Below are positions 1 through 14,270 of a stretch of DNA of 14,270 nucleotides, piece after piece. The notes under the pieces are model-generated. The model saw only the letters and a list, made by a program, of their open reading frames with translations. It had not been told where the DNA came from and searched no databases. Position numbers and translations under genes: made by a program. This stretch comes from a virus (Duplodnaviria; Heunggongvirae; Uroviricota; Caudoviricetes): positions 1 to 14,270 of IMG/VR virus record IMGVR_UViG_2609459861_000003; one strand, given 5' to 3'. Positions within the stretch are counted from its first letter, which is position 1; every line of letters starts with the position of its first letter.

Positions 1-1173
1 TCAGGCCTTATGGTGGAAATAATCACTCAGGCGGGAAAACATGCTGCCTTCCCCGACAGATTCCAGGGTAACCAGCGGCCAGTGCGCCACCTGTTTATCA
101 CGGTCGTAAAGTTCAATTTCCCCTACCCGCTGATGGGAGCTAATTGGCGCGGTGAGCTCTTTACCATCAAGGGTATATTTGGCTTTGATATGTGGAATTT
201 CGGCTTTCGGTAGCACCATCCAGAACTCTTGTTCCGTTCCCAGGGCGATATTTTCTTTATCGCCATACCAGATGCGTTCCGTACCGACCTTTTTCCCACG
301 GTGCAAAATTTGCACCGTAGTAAAGTTTTGTTGCCCCCAACGCAGTAATTTTCTTGCCTCTTCCTCACGACCTTTTGCACTGTCAGCCCCCATTACCACT
401 GCAATGAGACGACGCTGCCCATCTACAGCCGAAGCAATGAGGTTAAAACCGGCACCAGAAGTATGACCCGTTTTCAGGCCGTCAACATTCATGGTTTTAT
501 CCCACAATAACCCGTTACGGTTTTGCTGAGTGATACCGTTCCAGGTGAGGCTTTTCTCACTGTACATATGATAAAACTCGGGCTCGCCGTGGATGATAGC
601 GCGAGAAAGCACGGCTAAATCATAAGCCGAGCTATGCTGGCCAGGTGCATCCAGACCATGCACTGTTTCAAAATGCGTATCCTTGAGATGCAGCTTCTCG
701 GCATAGTTGTTCATCATTTCAACAAACTGCCGTTGCCCACCGGCAATATAGTCAGCCAGAGCAACACAAGCGTCATTTCCGGAATCCACAATTAAACCAC
801 GGCTTAAATCACGTACCGATACGCGATCGCCCTCTTTCAAAAACATCAGTGAAGAACCGACAAACACCGGATTATCTTTCGCCCACGCATCACGCCCCAC
901 GGTGACAATATCGTCTGGCGTAATGCGATGACTATCGATAGCGCGATCCACGACATAACCCGTCATCAGCTTTGTCAGGCTGGCGGGATTGCGCTGTTGA
1001 TGCTCATTACCCGCGGTGAGAATCTGACCGGTGGTGTAATCCATCAGTACCCAGGACCCGGCTTGAATCTGTGGAGGCTGAGGTGAAAAAGGAATGTTTT
1101 CCGCCGCAAAACCAGACGATAAGTTAAAAACGAACAAAGAAGCGGCAATAATAAGACGGCGTTTCAACAGCAA
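1..1173 (-). CDS. dacD: D-alanyl-D-alanine carboxypeptidase DacD (PBP6b), S11 serine peptidase
   Basis: Complete 390-aa ORF with stop at 1-3. N-terminal signal-peptide-like segment; SxxK (SLTK), SGN and KTG active-site motifs of class A low-MW PBPs. Distinct from DacA/DacC as recalled. Divergent neighbour is sbcB, as at the E. coli dacD locus. Confidence 0.85.
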   Translation of the reverse strand: MLLKRRLIIAASLFVFNLSSGFAAENIPFSPQPPQIQAGSWVLMDYTTGQILTAGNEHQQRNPASLTKLMTGYVVDRAIDSHRITPDDIVTVGRDAWAKDNPVFVGSSLMFLKEGDRVSVRDLSRGLIVDSGNDACVALADYIAGGQRQFVEMMNNYAEKLHLKDTHFETVHGLDAPGQHSSAYDLAVLSRAIIHGEPEFYHMYSEKSLTWNGITQQNRNGLLWDKTMNVDGLKTGHTSGAGFNLIASAVDGQRRLIAVVMGADSAKGREEEARKLLRWGQQNFTTVQILHRGKKVGTERIWYGDKENIALGTEQEFWMVLPKAEIPHIKAKYTLDGKELTAPISSHQRVGEIELYDRDKQVAHWPLVTLESVGEGSMFSRLSDYFHHKA

Positions 1174-1375
1174 ACCCTCAGGAGTTTCAAATAGCTGTTC
1201 TTTTTACGGAAATACTTATGAACTGGCTGGAATAAAGTGCAAGAAAATGTGACTACCCTCCCATTTTTATCTGACATGATCTGTTGCCACTCGCTGTCAA
1301 ATTATCGCGCTAAAGCTGATTAGCACGGTGATATTTGATACTCTGGCAGACAGCAGAAATAACGGATTTAACCTA

Positions 1376-1438
1376 ATGATGAATGACGGTAAGCAACAAT
1401 CTACCTTTTTGTTTCACGATTACGCGCAATACCCCTGA
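1376..1438 (+). pseudogene. sbcB: Exonuclease I (sbcB) 5' end interrupted by prophage insertion
   Basis: ATGATGAATGACGGTAAG... encodes MMNDGKQQSTFLFHDY, matching the SbcB N-terminus as recalled (next residues should be ETFG). Here the frame continues AQYP then stops at 1436-1438, so host/phage junction is at about 1424/1425. Confidence 0.6.
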
Positions 1439-1810
1439 GAACCGCCATGAACAAGGGTTTCATGATTTGTGATTTTAGTTTGGTACGCAATTTGGTACAC
1501 AACACAATTTTCACTTCAGCGGGTAGTCATCAAACTCACCATAACGAGCATCGTTAATGATGTATGTGATCACCACAAACATCACATCTGGAATAGTTCC
1601 GTTTTCATGCGCAGGTATTTGTTCACGCCTCCCTTTCTGCAAATCCTAAAGATGAGATTTTGGGGTTTTGGGATATCTTTTATCCTCAGTTCTCTATCCA
1701 TTATGCAAACCAGTAATGAACCATCACCGTGTGATAGTGAGGCATCTGCCACGATAAGCGCAGAGAAATGATGCAGTGGTGGGCGGACTGGCTGGACGAA
1801 AAGACACAGT

Positions 1811-1844
1811 AATCAAAAGCGGCAGGCCACATAAAAAGCCTGCC
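1811..1844 (-). terminator. Putative intrinsic terminator of the LexA-controlled operon
   Basis: Inverted repeat GGCAGGC / GCCTGCC (1821-1827 and 1838-1844) with a 10-nt loop, directly after the stop at 1845-1847; followed on the minus-strand RNA by GCUUUUGAUU. Confidence 0.45.
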
Positions 1845-2162
1845 TTATACCGCTACGCTGTCACTTCTCACATCGATGATGGTGTGTGTCACCACGCCGG
1901 CGACAGTGATATCATCCAGGGCCTCGCCTTCAATCGCTTCGCCGTCTTCAGTAATCAGGGCCCTCCCTCTCAACGTGGCAAGCTCAGTCCCGCCGCCGTG
2001 CTGGATCAGAACCTGACTACCCTGCTTTGGCTTCAGGGAGATATCCAGCACAACATAACCGCCATCCCTTTCGAAAACGCGGGTGTTAGGACCAACATTG
2101 CATATCGAGTTAACGGACAGTCGCTGCTCGACGTAGTCCGCTGCGGGTGAAGGAAAGCCCAT
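1845..2162 (-). CDS. UmuD'-like S24-family protein (HumD-like); Ser/Lys catalytic dyad apparently absent
   Basis: 105 aa starting MGFPSPAADYVEQR, which matches UmuD immediately after its Cys24-Gly25 self-cleavage site (recalled UmuD: ...CGFPSPAADYVEQRIDLN...). C-terminus DDITVAGVVTHTIIDVR parallels UmuD DTLDVFGVVIHVVKAMR. No GDSM serine motif and no aligned catalytic Lys visible by eye. ATG overlaps upstream stop by 1 nt (TAATG). Confidence 0.6.
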   Translation of the reverse strand: MGFPSPAADYVEQRLSVNSICNVGPNTRVFERDGGYVVLDISLKPKQGSQVLIQHGGGTELATLRGRALITEDGEAIEGEALDDITVAGVVTHTIIDVRSDSVAV

Positions 2163-2401
2163 TACAAAACCCTACCCATGTTAGCCATCATCCACAAACG
2201 GTTTTCGCTATGGTCGGTGGTTTTGTCGACAAAGTACGTCTGCTCTCTAGATATCCACGCATTAGCCTCTGAGTCGGTAAAGTGCAGCCCACGCCGGAGC
2301 AGCGCTGACACAAAATCCTTTGTATGCAGATACTGGTAGCCTTTGGAGTTGCGCAATACCGACTCGCGGAAAGCCTGATAGATGTCTGACTGACGGTGCA
2401 T
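2162..2401 (-). CDS. Hypothetical 79-aa protein, first gene of LexA-box operon
   Basis: ATG at 2401-2399 preceded by GGAGGG with 6-nt spacer; LexA box 19 bp upstream; translationally coupled to the downstream UmuD'-like gene. No family recognised. Confidence 0.55.
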   Translation of the reverse strand: MHRQSDIYQAFRESVLRNSKGYQYLHTKDFVSALLRRGLHFTDSEANAWISREQTYFVDKTTDHSENRLWMMANMGRVL

Positions 2402-2419
2402 GATCTTCCCTCCGATGAT

Positions 2420-2439
2420 TACTGTTTTTATATACAGTA
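2420..2439 (-). promoter_or_regulatory. LexA (SOS) box overlapping the promoter of the 79-aa/UmuD'-like operon
   Basis: Minus strand reads TACTGTATATAAAAACAGTA = CTG-N10-CAG with perfect TACTG/CAGTA arms and AT-rich centre (consensus TACTGTATATATATACAGTA). Flanked by a 10-bp inverted repeat TGATCTTCCC / GGGAAGATCA. Confidence 0.7.
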
Positions 2440-2620
2440 GTTTTACTGTAAGGGAAGATCAATAGCTGTTGCGACTATCAATGGTAGTAACCGGAAATGT
2501 TACTGAATCATATGACTTTGTTGGCGTTCAGCCAATGAATTCCATCTGTTGAAGTATTGGCTACGGCACTGGAAGGTTCATTGGTTTGAATGCTCTGCCA
2601 TCAAAGCCTAGTGGTGATTA

Positions 2621-2872
2621 TTAATCAATTATTGAGAAATTGCTCAGGTATGTTTCTTTAGCCAAAGAAAACACATCATCAGGTTCTCCACTGAGAGTTA
2701 CTACGTTGAAATCGAATATTTTATTTTCCTTGCCCTCTCCATCATAAATTCCGATAGCACTGATATAAAGATCTCCATCTTTCACGGTGTCATCTATGTA
2801 GGCAAAACATCCTACCTTCGATTCGCCATAGCGAGAGTTCGTCGATATGTAATCACCTTTCATGTAAGTCAT
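2621..2872 (-). CDS. Hypothetical 83-aa protein, AT-rich, coupled to the tailspike gene
   Basis: ATG at 2872-2870 overlaps the tailspike stop (ATGA overlap); ORF track gives an alternative TTG start at 2884. No family recognised. Confidence 0.45.
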   Translation of the reverse strand: MTYMKGDYISTNSRYGESKVGCFAYIDDTVKDGDLYISAIGIYDGEGKENKIFDFNVVTLSGEPDDVFSLAKETYLSNFSIID

Positions 2873-4203
2873 AGTGTTCCCCAAGCAGCTCTGAAGATGG
2901 AATATGCGTATGCGCTATTTAAATAAGATGTGTAGTCTCCGGCAATATAGTCCTGACTGGATACATCCCATTTCCTTACTACAGCATAGGATGATGTGAC
3001 GCTATAAACTAAATAATAATAACCGTTTATTAGCATGTATTCACCGGCAGACAGTAGCGAGCTCCCCATGGCTATTACTGTTTCTCCAGAAACAATCGTA
3101 TTGTATAGCGAGTAAGCAGGCCCCCAGCCACTGTTGAATGGCAAATTGCCTGTAGCCCGAATGAGGTTATCTTCCCCAGTCGTAGCGGAATACATCATGT
3201 ACGGCGCGGTGAATGAACAGCGATAGTACCTAGTGTTGTTTGCGGATGGCCAACCACGAGGTGTCGTGTTGTACGGTATGCCATCTGTCTGAACTCCGTT
3301 GTAGACCTGCTGAACCATTCTTGTATAGACACATCCGTTAGATTTTTTGGGAACGTAAAGAAAACACCTGCCAATGCTTTCATGGTTATTCACCCCAATA
3401 TCAACGTAAATCATCCCTCCAGTTGTCACAAAGGAGTCAATACAGTTTTTTAGTGTGTTGTTATAAACGCGAGTGTAACCAACTGCATTCTTCCAGCGGA
3501 TGCCCTGGCTGGAGGCAATATCCGCCCCTGTTATCGTGCATCCAATTACAGAACAATTATACGCAGCTGTATTTATCCGGTTAAAGAAAACACCAGAGTT
3601 ACTAAATCCTGAAATACGGCACGAAGATATTGCCACGTTTCCGCATGATTCGATGAACACTCCTACGCTTACATCACGGATAGTGTTATTACTAACAACA
3701 ACATCCTCCGCAACTCCCTGTCCAGATTCGTCAGTTACGTTACCAAAGATATCAATGCCATTATCACCGCAGGAGGCCACGGCACATCCCGTAATGGTCA
3801 TCCCGTTGGGGCGTTCACACTGAATGCCAATATATTCAACGTTGTGAACGTAGCAGTTCATAATTCTTGAGTTAGAACAGCCATAAACCGTATTGTTAGC
3901 TCGGCGTAAATAAATCCCTCCAGAAGTGCTATCTATCGCCTTAACGTTATCAATAGTGACATTATCCGAGTCCAAGATATTAATGCAGGTAATCCCCGTT
4001 CCGGCAGCGGTGCCACGGCTGCCGTTAAGCGTGATCCCCTGAATCTTGCAGTTATCGGCGGCGCCTTCCCAGTTTGTAATGATTGCGCCGCTGGCTGAGC
4101 CAGTAAAATTGCCATCAAGCGTGATTGCTCCGCCGCCCATCAGTGTTACACCACTACGCATACACAGCGCACCTCGACCCGCAGCAACCTCACCAGGTAT
4201 CAA
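2869..4203 (-). CDS. Tailspike/tail-fiber protein fragment with right-handed parallel beta-helix (pectate-lyase-like); N-terminal virion-binding part missing
   Basis: 444-aa ORF rich in Gly/Asn/Ser/Thr/Val/Ile/Cys repeats typical of beta-helix rungs (e.g. NCYVHNVEYIGIQCERPNGMTITGCAVASCGDNGIDIFGN). Frame is open upstream to 4266 with no ATG and no RBS; first listed start is TTG. Abuts the helicase fragment. Confidence 0.65.
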   Translation of the reverse strand: MIPGEVAAGRGALCMRSGVTLMGGGAITLDGNFTGSASGAIITNWEGAADNCKIQGITLNGSRGTAAGTGITCINILDSDNVTIDNVKAIDSTSGGIYLRRANNTVYGCSNSRIMNCYVHNVEYIGIQCERPNGMTITGCAVASCGDNGIDIFGNVTDESGQGVAEDVVVSNNTIRDVSVGVFIESCGNVAISSCRISGFSNSGVFFNRINTAAYNCSVIGCTITGADIASSQGIRWKNAVGYTRVYNNTLKNCIDSFVTTGGMIYVDIGVNNHESIGRCFLYVPKKSNGCVYTRMVQQVYNGVQTDGIPYNTTPRGWPSANNTRYYRCSFTAPYMMYSATTGEDNLIRATGNLPFNSGWGPAYSLYNTIVSGETVIAMGSSLLSAGEYMLINGYYYLVYSVTSSYAVVRKWDVSSQDYIAGDYTSYLNSAYAYSIFRAAWGTL

Positions 4204-4601
4204 AGTTGAATTAGGATTGAGAGTAACGGAGAATTCACCTCCAATGAGAATATTGGTTGGGCCGCTTCACGAACCTGCATTGCATAGGCAACGATGTTTG
4301 CGGCGCTTGGCGTGTTCTTTGCGATCTCAGCGATATAAGCAAAACCGCCAACAGACGCCGTTAACGATTTACGCTCCAGTTCATCGAAAAGCGTCAGGCC
4401 ATCTACTGGCTTTTGCTCCCGGTGCATTCTGGTTATCTCTTCGAAAAGAATTTTGTGTGGTCGGCTGTAAAATGAATCAGGCTTCAGCATCGCCAGAACT
4501 TTCTGGACGCGCTCACTGCTGTCATCATCCAGAAGCAATCCACCAATCACCGCCTGCTCTGCCTCGATGCTATGGGGCGGCGCATAAAAATTATCGGTCA
4601 T
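4200..4601 (-). pseudogene. DnaB-family replicative helicase, N-terminal fragment only (P22 gene 12-like), truncated at deletion junction
   Basis: MTDNFYAPPHSIEAEQAVIGGLLLDD...GGFAYIAEIAKNTPSAANIVAYA matches the DnaB N-terminal domain (E. coli DnaB PPHSIEAEQSVLGG...GGFAYLAELSKNTPSAANISAYA). Only about 115 helicase-like residues, then unrelated sequence and a stop at 4200-4202. RBS GAGG before ATG at 4601. Confidence 0.75.
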
Positions 4602-5481
4602 CGTGTTCACCCTCACGAACTTTCAGGTAGGTATTGTCGTTAAGCAGGAAATCAAATCCCTTTTTGTGCCAGACGGTTCCGCGCTGATGGTTTGGGCGCT
4701 CTTCGAACATCCATCGGCAATTTTCGCCTACGTAGCTCAAATAATTTCTCCAGTCCTGCATCGTGAACCCATGCCCGTCAAGCTGGCGGGTTATCACTCC
4801 GGCTTTGCGCCAGAACGTTCGGATCTGGTTTTTACGCTTGTCATTCAGTGCGCGGATTTTTGGCGCTTCAGGAAGGATTTCGTGGTAAGCATCGACAACA
4901 TCCTGACAGCTAACGGAAGGTTTTTTCTTGTCAGACTTTTTGTCTGCTGCGGTACTCTCTAATACGTCAGTATTAGAGATATTATTTATATTATTGTTTA
5001 TGGACAACCGTTGGACAACCGTTGGACAATCTCCGCTGAGAGCCGCGCCATTACTGGTGTTTGCGTTGGACAACCGTTGGACAACCGTTGGACAATTTTT
5101 TGCCTGAAAATCGTCATATTTAACGATTGTAAACAGGCTAAATTTCTTCCCCATCGAGCAAATATTAAGCATCCCTTTCGACTCAAAAGTCCGCAATAAG
5201 CTCCGAACTTTGTTGTCGGGGATGAATGTTTCTCTGACCAGCGACGGGCGTCCAGTTATCATCTGACCGCGATCAACAGTTATCGGCCCGATATCCGTAT
5301 TGACGACAGTAGATTCGTGATTAGCCTTGAGGATTAAGTGAAGCCAAAGATGTACTGCCTGAGAGTCCTTATAGAGCCTGCTGTCCATAAACTGGCGGTG
5401 TATAGAGACATACCCCATACTGGATGCCTCCTGATGTTGTACAGGGTTATGCCTGTAATCAGCTAACTTAACGACGCCCAT
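4591..5481 (-). CDS. Replication initiation protein, lambda O / P22 gp18 analogue, with origin iterons inside the gene
   Basis: 296-aa ORF with GGAG RBS before ATG at 5481; located cII -> O -> helicase as in lambdoid phages; contains the iteron cluster. Sequence unlike lambda O. Confidence 0.7.
   Translation of the reverse strand: MGVVKLADYRHNPVQHQEASSMGYVSIHRQFMDSRLYKDSQAVHLWLHLILKANHESTVVNTDIGPITVDRGQMITGRPSLVRETFIPDNKVRSLLRTFESKGMLNICSMGKKFSLFTIVKYDDFQAKNCPTVVQRLSNANTSNGAALSGDCPTVVQRLSINNNINNISNTDVLESTAADKKSDKKKPSVSCQDVVDAYHEILPEAPKIRALNDKRKNQIRTFWRKAGVITRQLDGHGFTMQDWRNYLSYVGENCRWMFEERPNHQRGTVWHKKGFDFLLNDNTYLKVREGEHDDR
4960..5097. repeat. Phage replication origin: two clusters of three 11-bp iterons (GTTGGACAACC, GTTG/CAAC dyad) plus adjacent AT-rich unwinding region
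   Basis: Direct repeats at about 5000-5029 and 5065-5095 with exact 11-bp periodicity; AT-rich stretch 4960-5000 immediately downstream in the direction of O transcription. Confidence 0.7.
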
Positions 5482-5639
5482 GTTTCACTCCTGCTTTGGC
5501 TAGTCTGTAAACACCAACAAGGCGCTCTGCGAACGCCCTGTTATTTGCTGCGGCTACCACTAATCCCTCAGGTGAATCAGGGTGTCGAATCTCTTCTTTT
5601 TCCTGGTATTTCTTACGACGTTTTGTCATAATTACTCCT

Positions 5640-5716
5640 GTGGATTGATCCAGTAATTCCCTCAGAATTGCATATCAATTTGCTTAAAATCCTCGGTGGC
5701 GGCCGGGGATTTTTTC
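5640..5716 (+). ncRNA. oop: oop-like antisense RNA overlapping the cII 3' end
   Basis: Sequence GTGGATTGATCCAGTAAT...CCTCGGTGGCGGCCGGGGATTTTTTCTTT is colinear with lambda oop as recalled (GTTGATAGATCCAGTAATGACC...GGTTGCCGCCGGGCGTTTTTTATT). Terminator hairpin CCUCGG/CCGGGG (5691-5708) plus U-run; candidate -10 CATAAT at 5627-5632. Confidence 0.6.
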
Positions 5717-5958
5717 TTTGTGACTTCATCAAGCGCATACTTAAAAGCCCTGCTAATCGGACTGATGTCTGATGCCATTCCAAAAGCACACAAGACCGAA
5801 GCAATAAATCTCCAGTCCGTTCTGCTTATCTTCGATTCATGACAGCCAATCATCTTTGCCAGACCGCGCTGGGTAAGCGTTGACAGGTTGATGAGTAAAT
5901 CAGTTTCAGCGCGATCAATTTCTCGCTGTGTTGGCTTGCTGTAACTTGCTTGTGTCAT
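5662..5958 (-). CDS. cII: CII-family transcriptional activator (lambda cII / P22 c1 homologue)
   Basis: 98 aa; C-terminus KKKSPAATEDFKQIDMQF parallels lambda CII KKRPAATERSEQIQMEF; position between cro and O; overlapped by oop and by the PRE -35. Confidence 0.8.
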   Translation of the reverse strand: MTQASYSKPTQREIDRAETDLLINLSTLTQRGLAKMIGCHESKISRTDWRFIASVLCAFGMASDISPISRAFKYALDEVTKKKSPAATEDFKQIDMQF

Positions 5959-5967
5959 TTGTTAATT
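5936..5967 (+). promoter_or_regulatory. PRE-like CII-dependent promoter (TTGC-N6-TTGC) directed toward cI
   Basis: TTGCTGTAACTTGC at 5936-5949 overlapping the cII start codon, with candidate -10 TTAATT at 5962-5967; same arrangement as lambda PRE. Confidence 0.6.
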
Positions 5968-6042
5968 TTCCAATAGTGAATAGTTAGTTGAAAGGTATGC
6001 GTGGAAACGCATATGGCCTTAGTTGGTCAGATATATTGGGAC

Positions 6043-6057
6043 TCGCTTTGTCAGCGA
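6043..6057 (-). promoter_or_regulatory. nutR boxB-like hairpin, P22 type (loop GACAA)
   Basis: Minus-strand UCGCU-GACAA-AGCGA between cro and cII; same loop as the nutL hairpin. Confidence 0.5.
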
Positions 6058-6095
6058 CGTAGGACGAATGTCCATTGTGAAAATAGCGGTGTTAC

Positions 6096-6305
<210 letters not shown>

Positions 6306-6322
6306 TTAGTACATGCAACCAT

Positions 6323-6386
6323 TATCACCGCTAGAGGTAAAATAGTCAACACGCACGGTGTTAGATATTTATCCCTTGCGGTGATA
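6323..6386. promoter_or_regulatory. OR1-OR2-OR3 operators with divergent PR (toward cro) and PRM (toward cI)
   Basis: OR1 TATCACCGCTAGAGGTA (6323-6339), OR2 CAACACGCACGGTGTTA (6347-6363), OR3 TATCCCTTGCGGTGATA (6370-6386). PRM -35 TAGATA / -10 TAGATT with leaderless cI ATG at 6397. Confidence 0.9.
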
Positions 6387-6393
6387 GATTTAA

Positions 6394-7110
<717 letters not shown>

Positions 7111-7258
7111 TCGGCAAGGTGTTCTGGTCGGCGCATAGCTGGTGAAAAAATTATTTAATGCGGTGTATTGGCTGATTGTAACCCCATGTAACATCTTGCC
7201 GTCACCATTTCGGTGGTTAGATTTTTAATAAAAAAACAAATGTATAGCAAGGTTTTTT

Positions 7259-7738
7259 ATGGATAAAATTAATTACCCACCCCTGTTTGAGCCAGGGTTC
7301 CATGACATGGATGAAGCTGGATTAAAATCGTATTGTGTCGATTGCTTTCCTTCATCATCCAGGCGAGGCATGCTATACTGTAATTTTATACAGCTACTCG
7401 AATCTATTCGAGAATTATCTGCTCAATATGGCTGTTTTACAGAAATATGGGTTGATGGTTCATACACCACGTCTAAACCAGAGCCTGATGATATTGATAT
7501 TTTGTTGGTATGTGACTATAGCAATATAAACTCAATACCTGTCATGCTTCGGGGCCGCGTCGATAATTTGCTTGACCGAAACTACATCAAACAAAACTAC
7601 AAAATTGATGTCCTACTACTCATGAAGAATTTAGATGACCCTAACTATGATTATGAGTACTGGCGTAGCTACTGGCGCGGTTGGTTTGGTTTTGATCGCA
7701 GTGAAAACCCGAAAGGGTTAGTGAGGATTTTTTTATGA
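7259..7738 (+). CDS. Nucleotidyltransferase-fold protein (Pol-beta-like NTase motif), first gene of rex-position cassette
   Basis: 159 aa; helix then FTEIWVDGSYTTSKPEPDDIDILLV, i.e. hG[GS]-x9-DxD with G67-S68 and D78/D80, and a third acidic residue in KIDVLLL (D117). Stop overlaps next start (ATGA). Confidence 0.6.
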   Translation: MDKINYPPLFEPGFHDMDEAGLKSYCVDCFPSSSRRGMLYCNFIQLLESIRELSAQYGCFTEIWVDGSYTTSKPEPDDIDILLVCDYSNINSIPVMLRGRVDNLLDRNYIKQNYKIDVLLLMKNLDDPNYDYEYWRSYWRGWFGFDRSENPKGLVRIFL

Positions 7739-8667
7739 ATGATAAATCAATGTTTAAAAATTGCGATAAACGCATTGATTTCATTCAAAAAGAAGTCGAT
7801 GCAATGAAGCAAAACAAAACCAGGTCCTTTGCTGACATGCTTCTTTATCGCTCCATGGATTCTCATCTGAGCGATTTGAAGGCCGAAAAATTAAAGCAAG
7901 ATAGTCGGCACCCACTTATCGATTTTTTTGAGCTGCGGCTGAAAGGCTCTGAGGTTGACTTTGGCTCTATTCCTTTAGAGCTGCTTGGGGCTATTTCAAC
8001 AAATCTTGCAGCGCTAATACAAAGAGCAACACACAAAATTGCCTCAGGCAAGGACTCAAAAAAAGTTCCCTACGACGTGAAAAGCTCCTTAAACCTCAGG
8101 CTGGCTGATTTATCCCCTGGGTCTACAAAATTGGGCGTCACCTTCTCTACAGGAATAGCAGAATTAGTAGAAACAGTACCCAGCAAGGCTGTAAAAGGCA
8201 TATTCGATTTGTTGTTAAGCGATGACGACAACAACTTCATGAATCACGTCGCTGAAATTGGATACAATTCCACTGTAAGCCTTAAGAGAATCGTAGAGGA
8301 ATGCGATAAACACAACTTAACATTTGATGCAAGTTGGACCGGTCCATTTAGTAATGGCACCAAGGTGGCAACTATTGACTCCAATAAAATTAAGTACTTG
8401 GTGAGTAGACTTACATCAACCATTTCATCCCCTCCCATTACTGAAACGGTTACAGGCGAACTGGTCGTTCTATCCAAATATGGGAAGCTGGAGCTTGATG
8501 TTGGTGGTGAACATTTAAAGGCTTCCTATCCGATTGAAATGCTAGATTTAATACAAAAAAAACACAAGGTCGGACAGATTGTTTCTCTTTTAGTGGAGAC
8601 TACTGAGATTCACAATGATCGCATAGGTCTGTACCGTAAAAACCATCTTGTTAAATCGGTTCTTTAA
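7735..8667 (+). CDS. Hypothetical 310-aa protein, second gene of rex-position cassette
   Basis: Translationally coupled to the NTase gene; AT-rich by eye; no transmembrane segment or known catalytic motif recognised. Confidence 0.6.
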   Translation: MNDKSMFKNCDKRIDFIQKEVDAMKQNKTRSFADMLLYRSMDSHLSDLKAEKLKQDSRHPLIDFFELRLKGSEVDFGSIPLELLGAISTNLAALIQRATHKIASGKDSKKVPYDVKSSLNLRLADLSPGSTKLGVTFSTGIAELVETVPSKAVKGIFDLLLSDDDNNFMNHVAEIGYNSTVSLKRIVEECDKHNLTFDASWTGPFSNGTKVATIDSNKIKYLVSRLTSTISSPPITETVTGELVVLSKYGKLELDVGGEHLKASYPIEMLDLIQKKHKVGQIVSLLVETTEIHNDRIGLYRKNHLVKSVL

Positions 8668-8674
8668 TATCTCA

Positions 8675-8700
8675 CCCGGCCACCGCGCCGGGTTTTCTTT
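8675..8700 (+). terminator. Intrinsic terminator closing the cI/cassette operon (tIMM-like)
   Basis: CCCGGC-caccgc-GCCGGG hairpin followed by TTTTCTTT. Confidence 0.7.
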
Positions 8701-8846
8701 GCCTCACGTTCGCCCCAAAACACATAACCAATTGTATTTATTTGAAAATTAATAGATACAACTCACTAAACATAGCAATTCAGATCTCTCACCTACCAAA
8801 CAATGCCCCCCTGCAAAAAATAAATTCATATAAAAAACATACAGAT

Positions 8847-8909
8847 AACCATCTGCGGTGATGAATTATCTCTAGCGGTGTTGACATAAATACCACTGGC
8901 GGTGATACT
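8847..8909 (+). promoter_or_regulatory. OL3-OL2-OL1 operators and PL promoter
   Basis: OL3 AACCATCTGCGGTGATG (8847-8863), OL2 TATCTCTAGCGGTGTTG (8867-8883), OL1 TACCACTGGCGGTGATA (8891-8907). PL -35 TTGACA at 8881-8886 and -10 GATACT at 8904-8909; near-identical to lambda PL as recalled. Confidence 0.85.
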
Positions 8910-8977
8910 AAACACATCAGCAGGACGCACTACTCACCAGGGCGGTGAATATACAACGATTCAAACATGAATCTACG

Positions 8978-8992
8978 GCGCTGACAAAGCGC
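8978..8992 (+). promoter_or_regulatory. nutL boxB hairpin, P22 type
   Basis: GCGCTGACAAAGCGC: 5-bp stem with GACAA loop, matching the P22 boxB RNA as recalled, about 65 nt downstream of the PL start. Confidence 0.6.
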
Positions 8993-9059
8993 AATAACTG
9001 GTCAGACGAAGAATTCATTCGTCATATGAAAGAATTAATCGGTAACGAAGGAGATATTC

Positions 9060-9230
9060 ATGTCACTTGCAACCACAGTGAAGGAGAGCAAGTTACAGAG
9101 ACGCATGTACACGCAGCAGGCGTTAATGTATCGCCAGAAGGGAGATCGTGAAGGTGTTCGCGTATTTTTAAATGCGGCAAAGACTGAAGTATTAAATCAG
9201 CGTTATTTCCTTGGGCCATGTCCATTCTGA
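9060..9230 (+). CDS. Hypothetical 56-aa protein immediately upstream of erf (position of P22 arf)
   Basis: Not in the ORF track (<60 aa). Strong RBS GGAGAT with 6-nt spacer before ATG at 9060; ends 11 nt before the erf ATG. Sequence not arginine-rich, so not an N-like antiterminator. Confidence 0.45.
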   Translation: MSLATTVKESKLQRRMYTQQALMYRQKGDREGVRVFLNAAKTEVLNQRYFLGPCPF

Positions 9231-9240
9231 GAACAATCAT

Positions 9241-9846
9241 ATGAGCAAAGAATTTTACGCAAGACTGGCAGCTATTCAGGAGAATCTGAACGCGCCAAAG
9301 AATCAGTACAACTCATTCGGAAAATATAAATACAGAAGCTGCGAAGACATTCTTGAAGGCGTTAAGCCGTTACTGAATGGCCTGTTTTTATCAATCAGCG
9401 ATGAAGTTGTGTTGATTGGTGATCGGTATTACGTGAAAGCCACGGCAACTATTACCGATGGCGAAAACAGTCATACGGCAACCGCTCTTGCACGAGAGGA
9501 AGAAAGCAAGAAAGGGATGGATTCTGCACAAGTTACGGGAGCTACAAGCTCTTATGCACGCAAGTATTGCCTCAATGGTTTGTTCGGCATTGATGATGCG
9601 AAAGATGCAGATACAGACGAGCATAAACATCAGCAGAACGCAGTAGCAAAGCAATCAAAACCATCACCTACACCTGAACAGGTTCTAAAAGCATTCACTG
9701 ACGCAGCAATGCAGAAAAACACCGTGGAAGAGCTTAAACAGGCGTTCGCCAAAGCGTGGAAGATGCTCGAAGGCACACCGGAGCAGCACAAAGCGCAGGA
9801 CGTTTACAACATCAGACGAGACGAATTAGAAGGAGCGGCTGCTTAA
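9241..9846 (+). CDS. erf: ERF-family single-strand annealing protein
   Basis: 201 aa from ATG 9241 (track gives upstream TTG at 9211); ERF-like core GKYKYRSCEDILEGVKPLL...DRYYVKATATITDGENSHTATA; location in the PL operon. Confidence 0.75.
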   Translation: MSKEFYARLAAIQENLNAPKNQYNSFGKYKYRSCEDILEGVKPLLNGLFLSISDEVVLIGDRYYVKATATITDGENSHTATALAREEESKKGMDSAQVTGATSSYARKYCLNGLFGIDDAKDADTDEHKHQQNAVAKQSKPSPTPEQVLKAFTDAAMQKNTVEELKQAFAKAWKMLEGTPEQHKAQDVYNIRRDELEGAAA

Positions 9847-10229
9847 TGGCACATTCGATTACTGTAAGACTAAACAAGCCCGCAAGAGAGTTTCAGGCCG
9901 GGGAAAATATCGGATTCAACATCCGTGCTGGCGTTCAGTATTACGATCGCCAGACAAAAAAGAAAGAATGGACAAACTACAGCGCCGTTGTATTTGCCAA
10001 GCCGGGGGCGCAAGCGGATTACTACCGTAGTGTTCTTGTTGAAGGTGGCATTGTAGAAATTACCGGAGAAAACATCAGGGTTGATGTTTATCAGGGGCAA
10101 AATGGTCAATCAATCACTCTTGAATTACTGAATGCGAAGATTGGATTTGCAGCTTCAGGAAACAGCCAACAGCAGCAAAGTAGCAATCATCAAAATCATC
10201 CTGAATACGACGATTCAATTCCATTCTAG
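9846..10229 (+). CDS. ssb: Single-stranded DNA-binding protein
   Basis: 128 aa from ATG 9846 overlapping the erf stop (TAATG). OB-fold-like core and Gln-rich linker ending in the acidic tail DDSIPF, typical of SSB C-termini. Confidence 0.8.
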   Translation: MAHSITVRLNKPAREFQAGENIGFNIRAGVQYYDRQTKKKEWTNYSAVVFAKPGAQADYYRSVLVEGGIVEITGENIRVDVYQGQNGQSITLELLNAKIGFAASGNSQQQQSSNHQNHPEYDDSIPF

Positions 10230-10252
10230 ATTAGCAAAATAAGGATTCCATT

Positions 10253-10549
10253 ATGCCAGCGCCTCTGTATGGTGCGGATGACCAGCGCCGCTGTTCCGGA
10301 AATTCCGTATCGGAGGTGCTGGATAAATTCAGAAAAAACTACGACCTGATAATGTCGCTACCGCAGGAAACGAAAGAGGAAAAGGAATTTCGCCACTGTA
10401 TATGGCTTGCAGAGAAAGAAGAACGAGAGCGAATTTACCAGACATCAATCCGACCATTCCGCAAAGCCACATATACCCACTTCCCTGAATATATCGACCC
10501 GCGCCTGCGTAATTACCGCTCACGCTATGGCGCTATCAGTAATGACTGA
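10253..10549 (+). CDS. Hypothetical 98-aa protein (position analogous to anti-RecBCD abc genes of P22; unverified)
   Basis: AAGGA RBS with 7-nt spacer before ATG 10253; family not recognised. Confidence 0.5.
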   Translation: MPAPLYGADDQRRCSGNSVSEVLDKFRKNYDLIMSLPQETKEEKEFRHCIWLAEKEERERIYQTSIRPFRKATYTHFPEYIDPRLRNYRSRYGAISND

Positions 10550-10559
10550 GGAATTAACA

Positions 10560-10850
10560 ATGAAAACAATGAAGCTAAACATCGACCTCGGAAAATACGT
10601 TATTACCGGAACCAAACACGATCTGATTCTTAGCGAAAGAGGAATTATCAAAGAAGGCGAGAATGCAGGGAAAGAAACACTAAGCCGTATCGGTTATTAC
10701 AGCAAGTTTGAGCATCTGGTTAAAGAATTATGCAACCGTGAAATCCTGTTATCTCAGGCGCAGACGCTACAGGATATTCAGCAGCATATCGAGACTTTAG
10801 GTGTGTCACTTAGCATGGCTATTGACCAGTTCGTGGAGAGTAAATCATGA
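10560..10850 (+). CDS. Hypothetical 96-aa protein
   Basis: GAGGAA RBS with 6-nt spacer before ATG 10560 (in-frame alternative ATG at 10542); family not recognised. Confidence 0.5.
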
Positions 10851-11011
10851 GAGGACTTGCATACAATCCCGGCATTCTTCCGGCAGAAATGATTATTCGC
10901 CAACGCGTAAAGCCAATGCCATCGAGAGAGGAATTGCTTAAGAGAAATTCTTTTCCATCAGTGAATCAAAACAAATATCTGAATGCAATGTGGCGGAGTG
11001 GGAAGAAATGA
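10847..11011 (+). CDS. Hypothetical 54-aa protein (not in ORF track)
   Basis: ATG overlaps the upstream stop (ATGA) and its own stop overlaps the HNH gene ATG (ATGA): coupled on both sides. Confidence 0.35.
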
Positions 11012-11709
11012 AACAAATGTCACTAATTGAGATGGATGGTTTTCTGAAAGGTAAATGCATCCCAAGTGATTTAAAGGTTAACGAAACAAACGCTGAATAT
11101 CTGGTGCGTAAATTTGCTGAAGCGGAGGCCAAGTGCGCGGCGCTGACTGACTTATTTGGCGATGTGAAAGAGATTTTTGGTTTTAAGTATCGCTATTTCA
11201 TCACCTCAAAGGGGCTCATTTTCTCATTGGCCTCTGGAGAACTAAAGCAATTAAACCCAACCATGCGCGGTAAGAACAGAAATCAGTATTTATTCGTTAG
11301 GCTGGAGTTTGAAGGAAAACTAAAAGGCGTGAACATCCACCGATTAGTTGCTGAAAACTTTCTCGGCCCTAAGCCTTCTGATGAGCACGTAATTAACCAT
11401 ATAGACGGGAATAAACAAAACAATGATGTTTCAAACCTGGAGTGGACGACGGTAGCGGGCAACACTCAGCACGCATATAGAACAGGTCTGGCCGGGGGAA
11501 GAAAACACGGATCGTATAAAGGTCCAGTCTGCGCTGAGAACGAGGAAGGTTTTGGGTATGTGTTCTTTGACAGCAAACAGGCCATCGAGGCTGGATTTAA
11601 CCCAAACTCAATCAGGGACGCTGTTGTTAAGCCATGGAAGAAAGTATTCGGATTCTATTTTAGTCGCATCAATACCGATGCCCAGCTTCGCAAAGGAGGC
11701 AACCAGTGA
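11008..11709 (+). CDS. HNH endonuclease (homing-endonuclease-like)
   Basis: 233 aa from ATG 11008; HNH motif region [31 protein letters not shown]. Confidence 0.75.
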
Positions 11710-12296
11710 GCAAGATTGATTATCAAAAGCTTCGTGAAATCGCTGAAAAAACAAAAATTGCCGGTGAAGCACCTGTAATGCCTTTCGATCAGCGAATTAA
11801 TGCGCTTAACGATTTTATGAAGCACTTTTCGCCAGATATCGCGCTGGCATTGTTGGATGAACGGGAAAGGAACCAGCAATACATAAAACGCCGCGACCAG
11901 GAGAACGAGGATATTGCACTAACGGTATGGAGGCTGCTAATCGAAAACGGCCAGCTTGTTGCCGATACGCTACGCCACTTAGCTGATAACGAAATCGACT
12001 CTGATTATTTTGCTATCACCTCAACGAATGAGAACGGTACTGAAATTGATCATGAGATGGCTATTACCGATTACGCACTGCAAGCTGCCGGAACTGTAGA
12101 CGAATTGGTTGCGGCGCTGGAATCCGCAGAGAATCGCATAGCAGAACTGGAGGAGCGGGAAATACTGCTCCCGGAACGTAGCAGCATGCTTCATCGAACA
12201 GATTTTCACGAGGATTACCAAACGGTAATGGCATACAAAGTTTCTGAAGTCATCGCTGCAATCCGCTCCGCTGGCATTCGCATCAAAGGAGAGTGA
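11706..12296 (+). CDS. Hypothetical 196-aa protein with coiled-coil segment (possibly Ead/Ea22-like)
   Basis: GTG start at 11706 overlapping the HNH stop, preceded by AGGAGG with 6-nt spacer; acidic coiled-coil segment ESAENRIAELEEREILL. Confidence 0.5.
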   Translation: MSKIDYQKLREIAEKTKIAGEAPVMPFDQRINALNDFMKHFSPDIALALLDERERNQQYIKRRDQENEDIALTVWRLLIENGQLVADTLRHLADNEIDSDYFAITSTNENGTEIDHEMAITDYALQAAGTVDELVAALESAENRIAELEEREILLPERSSMLHRTDFHEDYQTVMAYKVSEVIAAIRSAGIRIKGE

Positions 12297-12297
12297 G

Positions 12298-12489
12298 ATG
12301 GACGGACAAATATCAATCGTTCGACCAGGAGCATGTGACGATCGCGAAATACGAATAATTATTCGTCTGGCAATGGGGAAAGCAATAACTGCTCTCATTA
12401 CCCCAGAAAATCTCGCATTAGCATTAACAGGAAAGTCAGCCCTGCCAGTAGAGCTAAAGCTGCGAAATGTTGAGATTAAGGTGAAATAG
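12298..12489 (+). CDS. Hypothetical 63-aa protein
   Basis: AGGAGAG RBS before ATG 12298; 1-nt gap from the upstream stop. Confidence 0.45.
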   Translation: MDGQISIVRPGACDDREIRIIIRLAMGKAITALITPENLALALTGKSALPVELKLRNVEIKVK

Positions 12490-12491
12490 CT

Positions 12492-13163
12492 ATGACCACT
12501 ATTACCAAAGAACGTATCGAATTATTCATTAAAAATCCGCTTGAAAACGGGCTTACTCGTGGCGAACAAATGGAACTGGCACGAATTGCACTGACATCAC
12601 TGGAACGCGAACAGATTCGCCACGAGCATGCCAAATGGTCGGACTCCACATTTGGCTGCGTTGGCCCCATTGGTCCACTGAAACACCTCTCAAAAGAGGC
12701 ACTGGAAGCCGCAGCCGAACCAGACGATCTTAGCGAGTGGGCTGATATGCAGTTTCTGTTGTGGGATTCACAGCGCCGTGCTGGCATCAGCGATGCTGAA
12801 ATTACCGCTGCTATGGAAGATAAATTGAAGATCAACATGGAGCGCCAGTGGCCTGAGCCAAAAGATGGTGAGCCTCGCTTGCACATTAAAGAACCCGGCA
12901 ACTCTCCGGTAATTCCGGATGGTTGGGTCATGGTGCCGAAGAGACTAACAGCCGAGAACGGCGCTAAGGGTGTGCTATCCGGTGAATTTTCAGAAACTAC
13001 GTTTATAAGCTGCCCGGAATGCTTTGGTGATGATGATTGCGAAACTTGTGACTGTAGCGGGAGAATCGAAATCAAGGTTCCAGTCAGTTGGACAACTATC
13101 AAAACTATTTGGGCTAAAGGGTGTGAGCACTTTTCAATAGTAGCACCGCAGCAAGATGGGTGA
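12492..13163 (+). CDS. Putative MazG-like nucleotide pyrophosphohydrolase domain protein (DUF550-like) with Cys-rich C-terminal region
   Basis: 223 aa; acidic helix pattern LSKEALEAAAEPDDLSEWADMQFLL reminiscent of MazG-type dNTP pyrophosphohydrolases common in prophage early regions; C-terminal CPECFGDDDCETCDC. Assignment from memory only. Confidence 0.45.
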   Translation: MTTITKERIELFIKNPLENGLTRGEQMELARIALTSLEREQIRHEHAKWSDSTFGCVGPIGPLKHLSKEALEAAAEPDDLSEWADMQFLLWDSQRRAGISDAEITAAMEDKLKINMERQWPEPKDGEPRLHIKEPGNSPVIPDGWVMVPKRLTAENGAKGVLSGEFSETTFISCPECFGDDDCETCDCSGRIEIKVPVSWTTIKTIWAKGCEHFSIVAPQQDG

Positions 13164-13229
13164 TGAAAACAAGTATTTATAACTTAAAAGCATTAAAAAA
13201 TCGCTTATAGACCAAAAGAAATCTACGTC

Positions 13230-13259
13230 AAATATTACTATATTTCAATGTGTTATAAT
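13230..13259 (+). promoter_or_regulatory. Candidate promoter with extended -10 (TGtTATAAT) for the 80-aa gene
   Basis: TGTTATAAT at 13251-13259 in an AT-rich intergenic region following a 125-nt gap after the upstream operon. Confidence 0.35.
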
Positions 13260-13289
13260 TACCCCGTACATAAAATGGGGGGACACAAA

Positions 13290-13532
13290 ATGTTCAAACG
13301 CTGCATCACCAAGTGTGGAAGCACACCTGACATCCAAGCTTTTATTAATGAAGATGGTAAGCTTGTTGTTGAGAGGAGTGGTCCTTTTATTAGCAAACAA
13401 CTTATCATTACCTCTCCAGCGGAGATGGCCGGAGAATGGATAGTTTCTGAACCAGAGGAGTTGCACATCCCGCTTCCTTATGGCCCTCAGGGACTGATTT
13501 ATAACCGTTATGTTCAGAAGGAGGCGGGTTGA
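13290..13532 (+). CDS. Hypothetical 80-aa protein
   Basis: GGGGGGA RBS with 6-nt spacer before ATG 13290 (track start 13248 is less likely); preceded by candidate promoter. Confidence 0.45.
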   Translation: MFKRCITKCGSTPDIQAFINEDGKLVVERSGPFISKQLIITSPAEMAGEWIVSEPEELHIPLPYGPQGLIYNRYVQKEAG

Positions 13533-13812
13533 CAATGTCAGGCATAACATCGCCGAGAAATCGAAAGAAAAACAGAACAAGGTAAACGTTGACCTTGCAG
13601 CATCAGGCATGGAGTACAGAGAGCGCCTTAACATACCTGTTATCACTGAGCAGGTATCATGAGAGCAACCTGAGCACTCACGCGAGTATTTCATGGAGCG
13701 CATCAGATACTATCGCGAGCAGTCGTTAAACATGCCCAAGGGAAGCAACCCATGGTATATCGATATGGATGAACAGAACGCCAAGAAGTAAACGCAATTT
13801 GAACGAATGCGA

Positions 13813-13839
13813 ACCCGCCGAGTGCGGGTTTTCTTTTAT
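13813..13839 (+). terminator. Intrinsic terminator
   Basis: ACCCGC-cgagt-GCGGGT hairpin followed by TTTCTTTTAT. Confidence 0.55.
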
Positions 13840-13880
13840 CTGAACTCGCTACGGCGAGTTTTGTTTTATGGAGATGATAA

Positions 13881-14048
13881 ATGCACTTCCGAGTTACAGG
13901 TGAATGGAATGGAGAACCATTCAACAGAGTTATCGAAGCAGAGAACATCAATGACTGCTATGACCACTGGATGCTGTGGGCGCAGATAGCACATGCAGAA
14001 GTAACCAATATTCGAATTGAAGAACTGAAAGAACACCAAACCGCCTGA
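13881..14048 (+). CDS. Hypothetical 55-aa protein upstream of xis (not in ORF track)
   Basis: GGAG RBS with 7-nt spacer before ATG 13881; encodes MHFRVTGEWNGEPFNRVIEAENINDCYDHWMLWAQIAHAEVTNIRIEELKEHQTA; stop lies inside a terminator hairpin. Confidence 0.45.
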   Translation: MHFRVTGEWNGEPFNRVIEAENINDCYDHWMLWAQIAHAEVTNIRIEELKEHQTA

Positions 14049-14064
14049 TGGCGGTTTCTTTTTG
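14039..14064 (+). terminator. Intrinsic terminator upstream of xis
   Basis: AACCGCC-tgat-GGCGGTT hairpin followed by TCTTTTTG. Confidence 0.6.
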
Positions 14065-14078
14065 CCTGGAGAATTAAG

Positions 14079-14270
14079 ATGACCGATACCAGCCTGATTC
14101 CTGAGAAAGAAGTGATGAACAAGCTCGGTGTTTCATCACGTCAGACAATCTGGAACTATACCAAACGGCATGGATTTCCGAAGCCAGTCAGAACCCACCC
14201 CAAATCATACCTTCGTGAAGCTGTTGAAGGGTGGATTCTTAACGGTGGCGTTAATCAGAAATGCTCCTGA
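14079..14270 (+). CDS. xis: Excisionase / AlpA-family helix-turn-helix DNA-binding protein
   Basis: 63 aa; GGAG RBS; HTH-like VMNKLGVSSRQTIWNYTKRHGFPKP; position at the end of the early-left operon where xis-int normally lie; stop at the window edge. Confidence 0.7.
   Translation: MTDTSLIPEKEVMNKLGVSSRQTIWNYTKRHGFPKPVRTHPKSYLREAVEGWILNGGVNQKCS

Follow-up and report, generated by a model that had tools for sequence, protein, structure and literature searches.

The window analysed in this work, a stretch of 14,270 nucleotides, very probably records a private deletion from N through kil in an already crippled E. coli prophage, which left orphan nut sites behind. Since N was removed and the nut sites were spared, both sites survive as intact but orphaned cis-elements. 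Intact relatives carry the same nutL together with N, whereas the window jumps from nutL to post-kil DNA, which bears out the first of the alternatives originally offered, that N had been deleted. The orphan state is ordinary prophage decay within known lambdoid biology, and involves no new regulatory system.

Layout and defects of the prophage remnant

What the window contains is a defective prophage of lambdoid/P22-like type, inserted next to dacD in a chromosome resembling that of E. coli. Its plus strand is the counterpart of the lambda leftward operon, and the elements outside the nut regions, the deletion junction and the right-hand terminators are as follows:

1-1173, minus strand: dacD, adjoining the prophage remnant
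1803-2884, minus strand: three small ORFs (105, 79 and 87 aa), flanked by the tailspike fragment and by host-type sequence close to dacD
2869-4203, minus strand: beta-helix tailspike-like fragment, a 444-aa ORF (Pfam beta-helix domain)
4200-4616, minus strand: dnaB-type helicase gene, N-terminal domain only, 138 aa (Pfam), adjoining the tailspike-like fragment
4591-5481, minus strand: O-like replication gene
5468-5629, minus strand: 53-aa gene
5662-5958, minus strand: cII
6096-6296, minus strand: cro
6349-6321, minus strand: PR (promoter scan)
6397-7110, plus strand: cI
7259-8667, plus strand: two genes in the rexA/rexB slot, between cI and PL
8674-8693, plus strand: terminator
9241-9846, plus strand: erf, ssDNA-annealing recombinase (Pfam ERF, 5.6e-44; 99.5% identical to HK97 Erf)
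9846-10229, plus strand: SSB-like gene
10253-10549, plus strand: abc2
10550-14078, plus strand: further early-left genes
14079-14270, plus strand: start of the AlpA-type xis

The sequence to the left of approximately 1803 is of host type, the homology to the 478-aa helicase of R18 ends at 4266, and no nin, Q, lysis, head or tail genes were found between 1803 and 4266. A second large deletion, seen as the join of dnaB with the tailspike-like fragment, removed the nin, Q, lysis and virion genes. With the helicase gene truncated and the late genes absent, replication is impossible. Thus, genes for lytic growth have been lost from a recognizable prophage in three respects, as N has been deleted, dnaB cut short and the late genes lost; in the shortened early-left operon, erf is the first known gene that is intact. 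In the immunity region (positions 6082-7141 and 8674-8948, with cI, cro, OR and OL/PL) the identity is 94-98% to lambda and 99% to HK97, so the relic should confer lambda-type immunity. The combination of lambda-type immunity with non-lambda nut sites is also found in HK97.

The products of the two genes in the rexA/rexB slot are a DUF6932 protein of 159 aa and a second protein of 310 aa; in PADLOC they correspond to a candidate defence pair, with PDC-M63A at 1.8e-41 and PDC-M63B at 7.5e-45. Identical copies of the 310-aa protein are listed in 4258 blocks of the assembly collection, and at the 10 places that were inspected it follows repressors of several different types, in the manner of a mobile moron cassette. 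The three small ORFs at 1803-2884, which have no match in Pfam or PADLOC, sit where P22-like prophages carry moron or conversion genes. The DNA of the neighbouring tailspike-like fragment shows no more than about 77% similarity to a Klebsiella phage of 160 kb and has no counterpart in the E. coli relatives compared. At the other end, the early-left operon includes two genes, at 10990-11709 and 12492-13163 (both plus strand), for an HNH endonuclease (Pfam HNH_3; PADLOC homing-endonuclease model) and for a protein with a dATP/dGTP pyrophosphohydrolase domain.

The nut sites and their class

The early promoter on the plus strand and the elements of the two nut regions are:

8881-8909, plus strand: PL promoter (-35 TTGACA, 8881-8886; -10 GATACT, 8904-8909) with lambda-type OL operators (promoter scan, 10/12 matches)
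8926-8934, plus strand: putative nutL boxA CGCACTACT, at the position annotated "putative nutL boxA" in EF120460; poor match to the boxA consensus
8934-8973, plus strand: nutL spacer with two small hairpins (8934-8948 and 8958-8973; RNA fold), conserved in the H-19B, HK97 and mEp234 leaders
8978-8992, plus strand: nutL boxB hairpin GCGCUGACAAAGCGC, identical in HK97, mEp234 and H-19B, and to P22 nutL boxB
6062-6088, minus strand: nutR boxA CGCTATTTT (6088-6080) and spacer hairpin GGAC-ATTC-GTCC (6073-6062; fold), identical to H-19B nutR
6057-6043, minus strand: nutR boxB hairpin UCGCUGACAAAGCGA between cro and cII, identical to the H-19B and HK97 nutR boxB
5959-6042, minus strand: region from nutR to cII, by its identity the putative functional counterpart of the Rho-dependent tR1 of H-19B

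The PL/OL region is 94% identical to that of lambda, and the start of the PL transcript was placed at 8916 by alignment to the annotated mEp234 immunity record EF120460. A boxB about 65 nt downstream of PL, and a matching one between cro and cII, had been reported from the sequence, and both were found. The first, GCGCTGACAAAGCGC at 8978-8992 (plus strand), starts 62 nt after the transcript start, and the second, TCGCTGACAAAGCGA, lies at 6057-6043 (minus strand), between cro (6296-6096) and cII (5958-5662). The 13-mer CGCTGACAAAGCG occurs exactly twice in the window, at 8979-8991 (plus strand) and 6056-6044 (minus strand). As the expectation from shuffled sequences is 0.01 and none of 200 shuffles gave two matches, the pairing of the boxB elements is far beyond chance. 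Each of them forms a 5-bp stem with a GACAA pentaloop (-8.5 kcal/mol, z = -2.9 for nutL; -6.6 kcal/mol, z = -2.4 for nutR), and the RNA of 8917-9005 folds with -21.9 kcal/mol (z = -3.0). Both sites therefore show the 5-bp stem, the GNRA-like pentaloop and the cognate sequence expected of boxB, and they are placed as nut sites should be, one after PL and one past PR, between cro and cII. With respect to boxA, it is the nutR copy, CGCTATTTT, that is recognizable, the nutL copy, CGCACTACT, being taken from the annotation of a relative and matching the consensus weakly. An Rfam scan of the whole window (E <= 1) returned two sub-threshold chance matches (rsmX and RNase MRP) and none at the nut sites; lambdoid nut sites in general matched nothing in the Rfam library used.

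The hairpins had been assigned to the P22 type. This holds for the 15-nt nutL boxB but not for the full nut regions, as the 83-nt nutL/PL leader is 96-98% identical to those of HK97, mEp234, H-19B, R18 and E272, and the 137-nt cro-cII intergenic region, with nutR/tR1, is 97-98% identical to those of HK97 and H-19B. Because the whole leader is shared with H-19B, HK97 and mEp234, the class is more precisely that of H-19B/HK97/933W, and, judged by sequence, the cis sites belong to the N-nut system of these phages (Stx-phage type). The nutR core of H-19B (boxA CGCTATTTT, the GGAC/GTCC spacer hairpin and boxB) is identical in the window, the sites hold the same positions after PL and between cro and cII, and a tR1 region likewise follows nutR. 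The H-19B nutR has been studied experimentally and has two hairpins, and nutR/tR1 acts as a Rho-dependent terminator in which the nut and rut sites overlap; the arginine-rich motif (ARM) of H-19B N has been described in the same work (PMC3526286). The cognate protein of this system is a 127-aa N with the ARM RSRRRER, and its gene follows nutL in every relative examined but is missing from the window. Thus, regarded as an N-nut system, the element lacks what defines one, namely the cognate N. The difference between boxA CGCTATTTT in the window and CGCTCTTTT in HK97 was considered as a sign of decay and rejected, because H-19B carries the version of the window.

The relationship to P22 is narrower. 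The 15-mer of the window nutL boxB is identical to that of P22 and is the RNA in the solved complex with the P22 N peptide (PMC11480772). However, P22 nutL has no similarity to the window outside this 15-mer, P22 nutR boxB differs (CCGCCGACAACGCGG), and so do both P22 boxA elements, with boxA reading CGCTCTTTA. The window therefore shares with the strict P22 class only the 15-nt nutL boxB, and not the P22 boxA, spacer or nutR boxB. The P22 anti-terminator, gp24, has a C-terminal segment in common with the HK97-type N (67% over 33 aa, E = 5e-11), and a gp24 homologue is absent from the window. It follows for annotation that hairpins labelled as "P22-type" boxB also occur in the E. coli H-19B/HK97/933W N family. 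Lambda has the same layout (PL-nutL and PR-cro-nutR-tR1-cII), and its cI, cro and operators are about 98% identical in DNA; on the other hand, its boxB (GCCCUGAARAAGGGC) is unlike that of the window, and the homology to lambda ends at about 8948, upstream of the window nutL boxB. HK022, with its put RNA and Nun, represents lambdoid early-operon anti-termination that has no need for N (factor-independent). The PL leader of the window is of the HK97 nutL type and not a put element, and a homologue of Nun is absent from the window.

The junction after nutL and the missing N gene

Between nutL and erf the window contains the following elements:

8994-8998, plus strand: deletion junction with the 5-bp microhomology ATAAC on the nutL side and on the post-kil side (three-way alignment)
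8993-9151, plus strand: 5'-truncated small gene of phrog_2123, homologue of mEp213 gp41 and of the N-terminal part of HK97p32 (PHROG 2e-34, profile positions 5-52 of 52)
9060-9230, plus strand: conserved 56-aa ORF of phrog_1723, directly upstream of erf (PHROG 4.5e-34; no Pfam family)

All five relatives (HK97, mEp234, H-19B, R18 and E272) encode a 127-aa N, whose ARM is RSRRRER, in a gene that starts about 165 nt past boxB. In the window the nutL homology stops at 8998, 6 nt past boxB, and the homology to the post-kil DNA of the relatives begins at 8994. In the alignment to HK97, window positions 8677-8998 correspond to 3272-3598 of the HK97 locus and positions 8994-10563 to 5146-6715, so that locus positions 3599-5145 are absent. 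These 1547 bp hold N, gp45, an annotated putative terminator, cIII and kil, which is what normally lies between nutL and erf in HK97, as the proposed comparison with intact relatives was meant to reveal. About 1.7 kb is missing relative to R18; the content deleted from the actual ancestor may differ, since this segment varies among the relatives, with about 1.5 kb in HK97 and 1.7 kb in R18. Other nutL and N types occur in mEp213 and HK544, for which the feature tables give a block of roughly 2.4 kb from PL to kil. The right breakpoint is the same against mEp213, HK544, R18, E272 and H-19B, and the post-kil side is 95-98% identical over 1.57 kb to mEp213, HK544, HK97, R18, E272 and H-19B, the H-19B match spanning 900 bp, up to the end of the record used. 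We propose that a single illegitimate-recombination event between the two ATAAC pentamers would have removed all DNA between a point 6 nt past the nutL boxB and codon 5 of the gene following kil.

RefSeq annotates a "pseudo antitermination protein, missing N-terminus" in R18 (NZ_CP186506), which could have meant recurrent decay of N. This idea was dropped, as an intact 127-aa HK97-type N ORF spans 7904-8287 of the R18 locus, where the pseudo feature occupies 8219-8287, and the label is thus an annotation quirk. At 8221-8337 another R18 ORF overlaps this N ORF in a different frame; its C-terminus resembles that of lambda N (..VTCVGRQKIKLGSKPLI), a mosaic scar.

The right breakpoint falls 13 nt inside the phrog_2123 gene, and the start codon and the first four codons are lost. 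The start of mEp213 gp41 is MSFTDNWSDEEF, whereas the window reads ..TKRNNWSDEEF, without a start codon of its own, and HK97p32 matches the window from residue 5 onward. Since the breakpoint lies inside this gene, the 68-aa ORF at 8945-9151 is an accidental fusion with nutL sequence. The truncated gene, and not the 56-aa ORF, is hence the first to follow nutL directly, which amends one part of the original description; the other part, that a 56-aa ORF lies after nutL and is followed by erf, stands, and this ORF is not N. P22 Arf was considered as the identity of the truncated ORF and rejected, the match being of 10 residues only (E = 1.4). The phrog_2123 and phrog_1723 ORFs overlap in different frames (8945-9230), and a single 83-aa ORF, HK97p32 (HK97 locus 5133-5384), covers both. 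The version in the window, mEp213 and HK544 is 2 nt shorter, which splits the ORF in two, either as an indel polymorphism or as a frameshift site.

It could be imagined that one of these small ORFs, the 56-aa ORF at 9060-9230 or the 68-aa fusion ORF at 8945-9151, encodes an unrecognized anti-terminator that replaces N. The former, the first ORF to follow nutL intact, encodes a protein with basic stretches (KLQRRMYTQQALMYRQK). However, ORFs of phrog_2123 and phrog_1723 sit just upstream of erf in HK97, mEp213 and HK544, whose N proteins are of the HK97, HK620 and lambda type, respectively, and genes common to phages with three different N types are not N substitutes. This also leaves the earlier suggestion of an unrecognized factor unsupported, as the small ORFs occur in phages that have their own N. 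Pfam, which does hold N families (PF25694 and PF11438 were found on relatives), detected no family, N_peptide/N36 included, in the two small ORFs, the ARM scan described below was negative, and the 68-aa ORF is an accidental product of the deletion. A substitute encoded in the window is therefore scarcely credible.

The search for N itself was equally negative. In tblastn searches of the window, the HK97/H-19B-type, HK620/mEp213-type and lambda-type N and P22 gp24 gave nothing below E = 0.1, HK022 Nun gave no match at E <= 10, and sieB, ral, cIII, kil, gp17, ea10 and gam gave nothing below E = 0.14; the positive controls, Erf and HK97p32, were recovered at 1e-138 and 3e-22. With such strong controls, the reported absence of the N, sieB, ral, cIII and kil block from the window is borne out, as is that of any homologue of P22 gp24, lambda N or HK022 Nun. 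A six-frame ARM scan, with a filter that picks up the known ARM in the N proteins of HK97, P22, lambda and mEp213, found seven arginine-rich stretches, none of which begins a plausible ORF after nutL; the five that were compared with the ORF list either are out of frame with the gene or precede any start codon. The first gene after nutL in the window is accordingly not one for an ARM protein, and the two observations that would have spoken against the original description, an N-like ARM protein in this interval or hairpins foreign to every boxB class, were not made: the ARM scan, Pfam and tblastn are negative, and the hairpins are identical to the H-19B/HK97 sites. The absence of N applies to the 12.5 kb of prophage DNA within the 14-kb window, the rest of the source genome lying outside it.

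Among 5426 complete E. coli genomes, the nutL type is present at >= 80% coverage in 416 and the N gene in 414. As these counts are almost equal, the two normally travel together and the orphan state is unusual. The junction is witnessed by one assembly: its 36-mer has no exact match in GTDB representative genomes, its 25-mer has none in JGI metagenomes and IMG/VR, and no record among the 5426 complete E. coli genomes and 50,697 GenBank phage records spans it in megablast. This, and the fact that the nut sequences have not decayed, speaks for a deletion that is recent and private to the strain. A junction seen in one sequence only could also be an assembly or chimera artefact, or, in view of the pronounced mosaicism of lambdoid genomes (PMC2629481), an ordinary mosaic boundary in a type of viable phage that has its N elsewhere. 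We consider this highly improbable, because 5-bp microhomology at a junction that cuts into a conserved ORF is what a real microhomology-mediated deletion leaves behind, and the flanks are collinear with relatives over 3.4 kb on the left (5620-8998 vs R18) and 1.6 kb on the right (8994-10563). Furthermore, N is the first early-left gene in lambdoid phages (PMC2629481), and none is present in the 12.5 kb of prophage DNA.

Expected transcription and the fate of the orphan sites

Two sets of terminator-like hairpins precede xis:

13811-13831 and 13842-13861, plus strand: tandem terminator-like hairpins, 8-bp stems with T tracts (terminator scan)
14038-14057, both strands: bidirectional terminator-like hairpin just upstream of xis (terminator scan), in a region conserved in the E272 prophage

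Terminators had been cited at 13813 and 14039; the hairpins predicted at 13811-13831 and 14038-14057 agree with this, and that at 13842-13861 is a third. These are consensus predictions, and tR1 is assigned by 97% identity to the Rho-dependent tR1 of H-19B. No strong intrinsic terminator was predicted between PL and 13811, and the one annotated in HK97 lies in the deleted segment, so erf, abc2 and their neighbours may still be transcribed.

From the terminator predictions and the published behaviour of H-19B nutR/tR1 we infer the following transcriptional consequences. With cI active, PL and PR would be off. Upon derepression nut RNA would be made from both promoters, and the polymerase would not be converted to its termination-resistant form. 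Rightward transcripts would then largely stop at the Rho-dependent tR1, before cII and O, and leftward transcripts could cover erf, abc2 and their neighbours but would stop at 13811-13861 and 14038-14057, before xis and int. Combined with the truncation of the helicase gene and the lack of the late region, the loss of N would lock the element in place, and the loss of kil would remove the lethal consequence of derepression, i.e. the killing of the host.

In a rival reading, N would come in trans from a prophage with N of the H-19B/HK97/933W type, either resident in the same cell or superinfecting it, and the early operons of the relic would be anti-terminated when both elements are derepressed. 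Neither the boxB hairpins nor any part of the nut leaders is damaged, and all match those of functional phages, the N of 933W is 98% identical to the HK97-type N, and the N gene is present in the 414 genomes mentioned above. However, this corresponds to a base rate of only about 8% of genomes, the intact sites are equally well explained by a recent deletion, the junction being private, and the benefit to an element whose replication and late genes are gone is not evident. We therefore regard help in trans as unlikely. It is very unlikely that, beyond being undecayed, the orphan sites have been retained, with the early-left operon (erf, the ssb-like gene, abc2, the HNH nuclease and the dATP/dGTP pyrophosphohydrolase) fully expressed only with N from a phage of the 933W/H-19B/HK97 type. 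If this were true, the cryptic prophage would act as a piggy-back or sensor element, which responds to, or titrates N from, the Stx-type phage class.

The deletion of N through kil by one recent event, which we prefer, shows instead how a lambdoid prophage may be disarmed: a single microhomology deletion takes the early anti-terminator, kil and cIII together, and the repressor, the candidate defence pair and the recombination genes remain. For annotators it means that intact nut hairpins do not amount to a working N system, and it has little significance beyond annotation. With this respect, the relic resembles the cryptic lambdoid prophages of E. coli, which have likewise lost lytic functions by deletion: it keeps the repressor, the candidate defence pair in the rexAB slot and the recombination genes, and the killing, replication and virion functions are gone. 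It differs from them in that the deletion takes exactly N through kil and spares the nut sites. The sister relic in strain E272, at the same dacD site, lacks most late genes, yet it has retained N. The site adjacent to dacD is a shared prophage integration hotspot. Window positions 1150-1803 are 97% identical to the ends described as "duplication due to insertion" in the record of the Stx2c phage 1717 and in other Stx phage records, and in E272 this stretch is interrupted by IS2.
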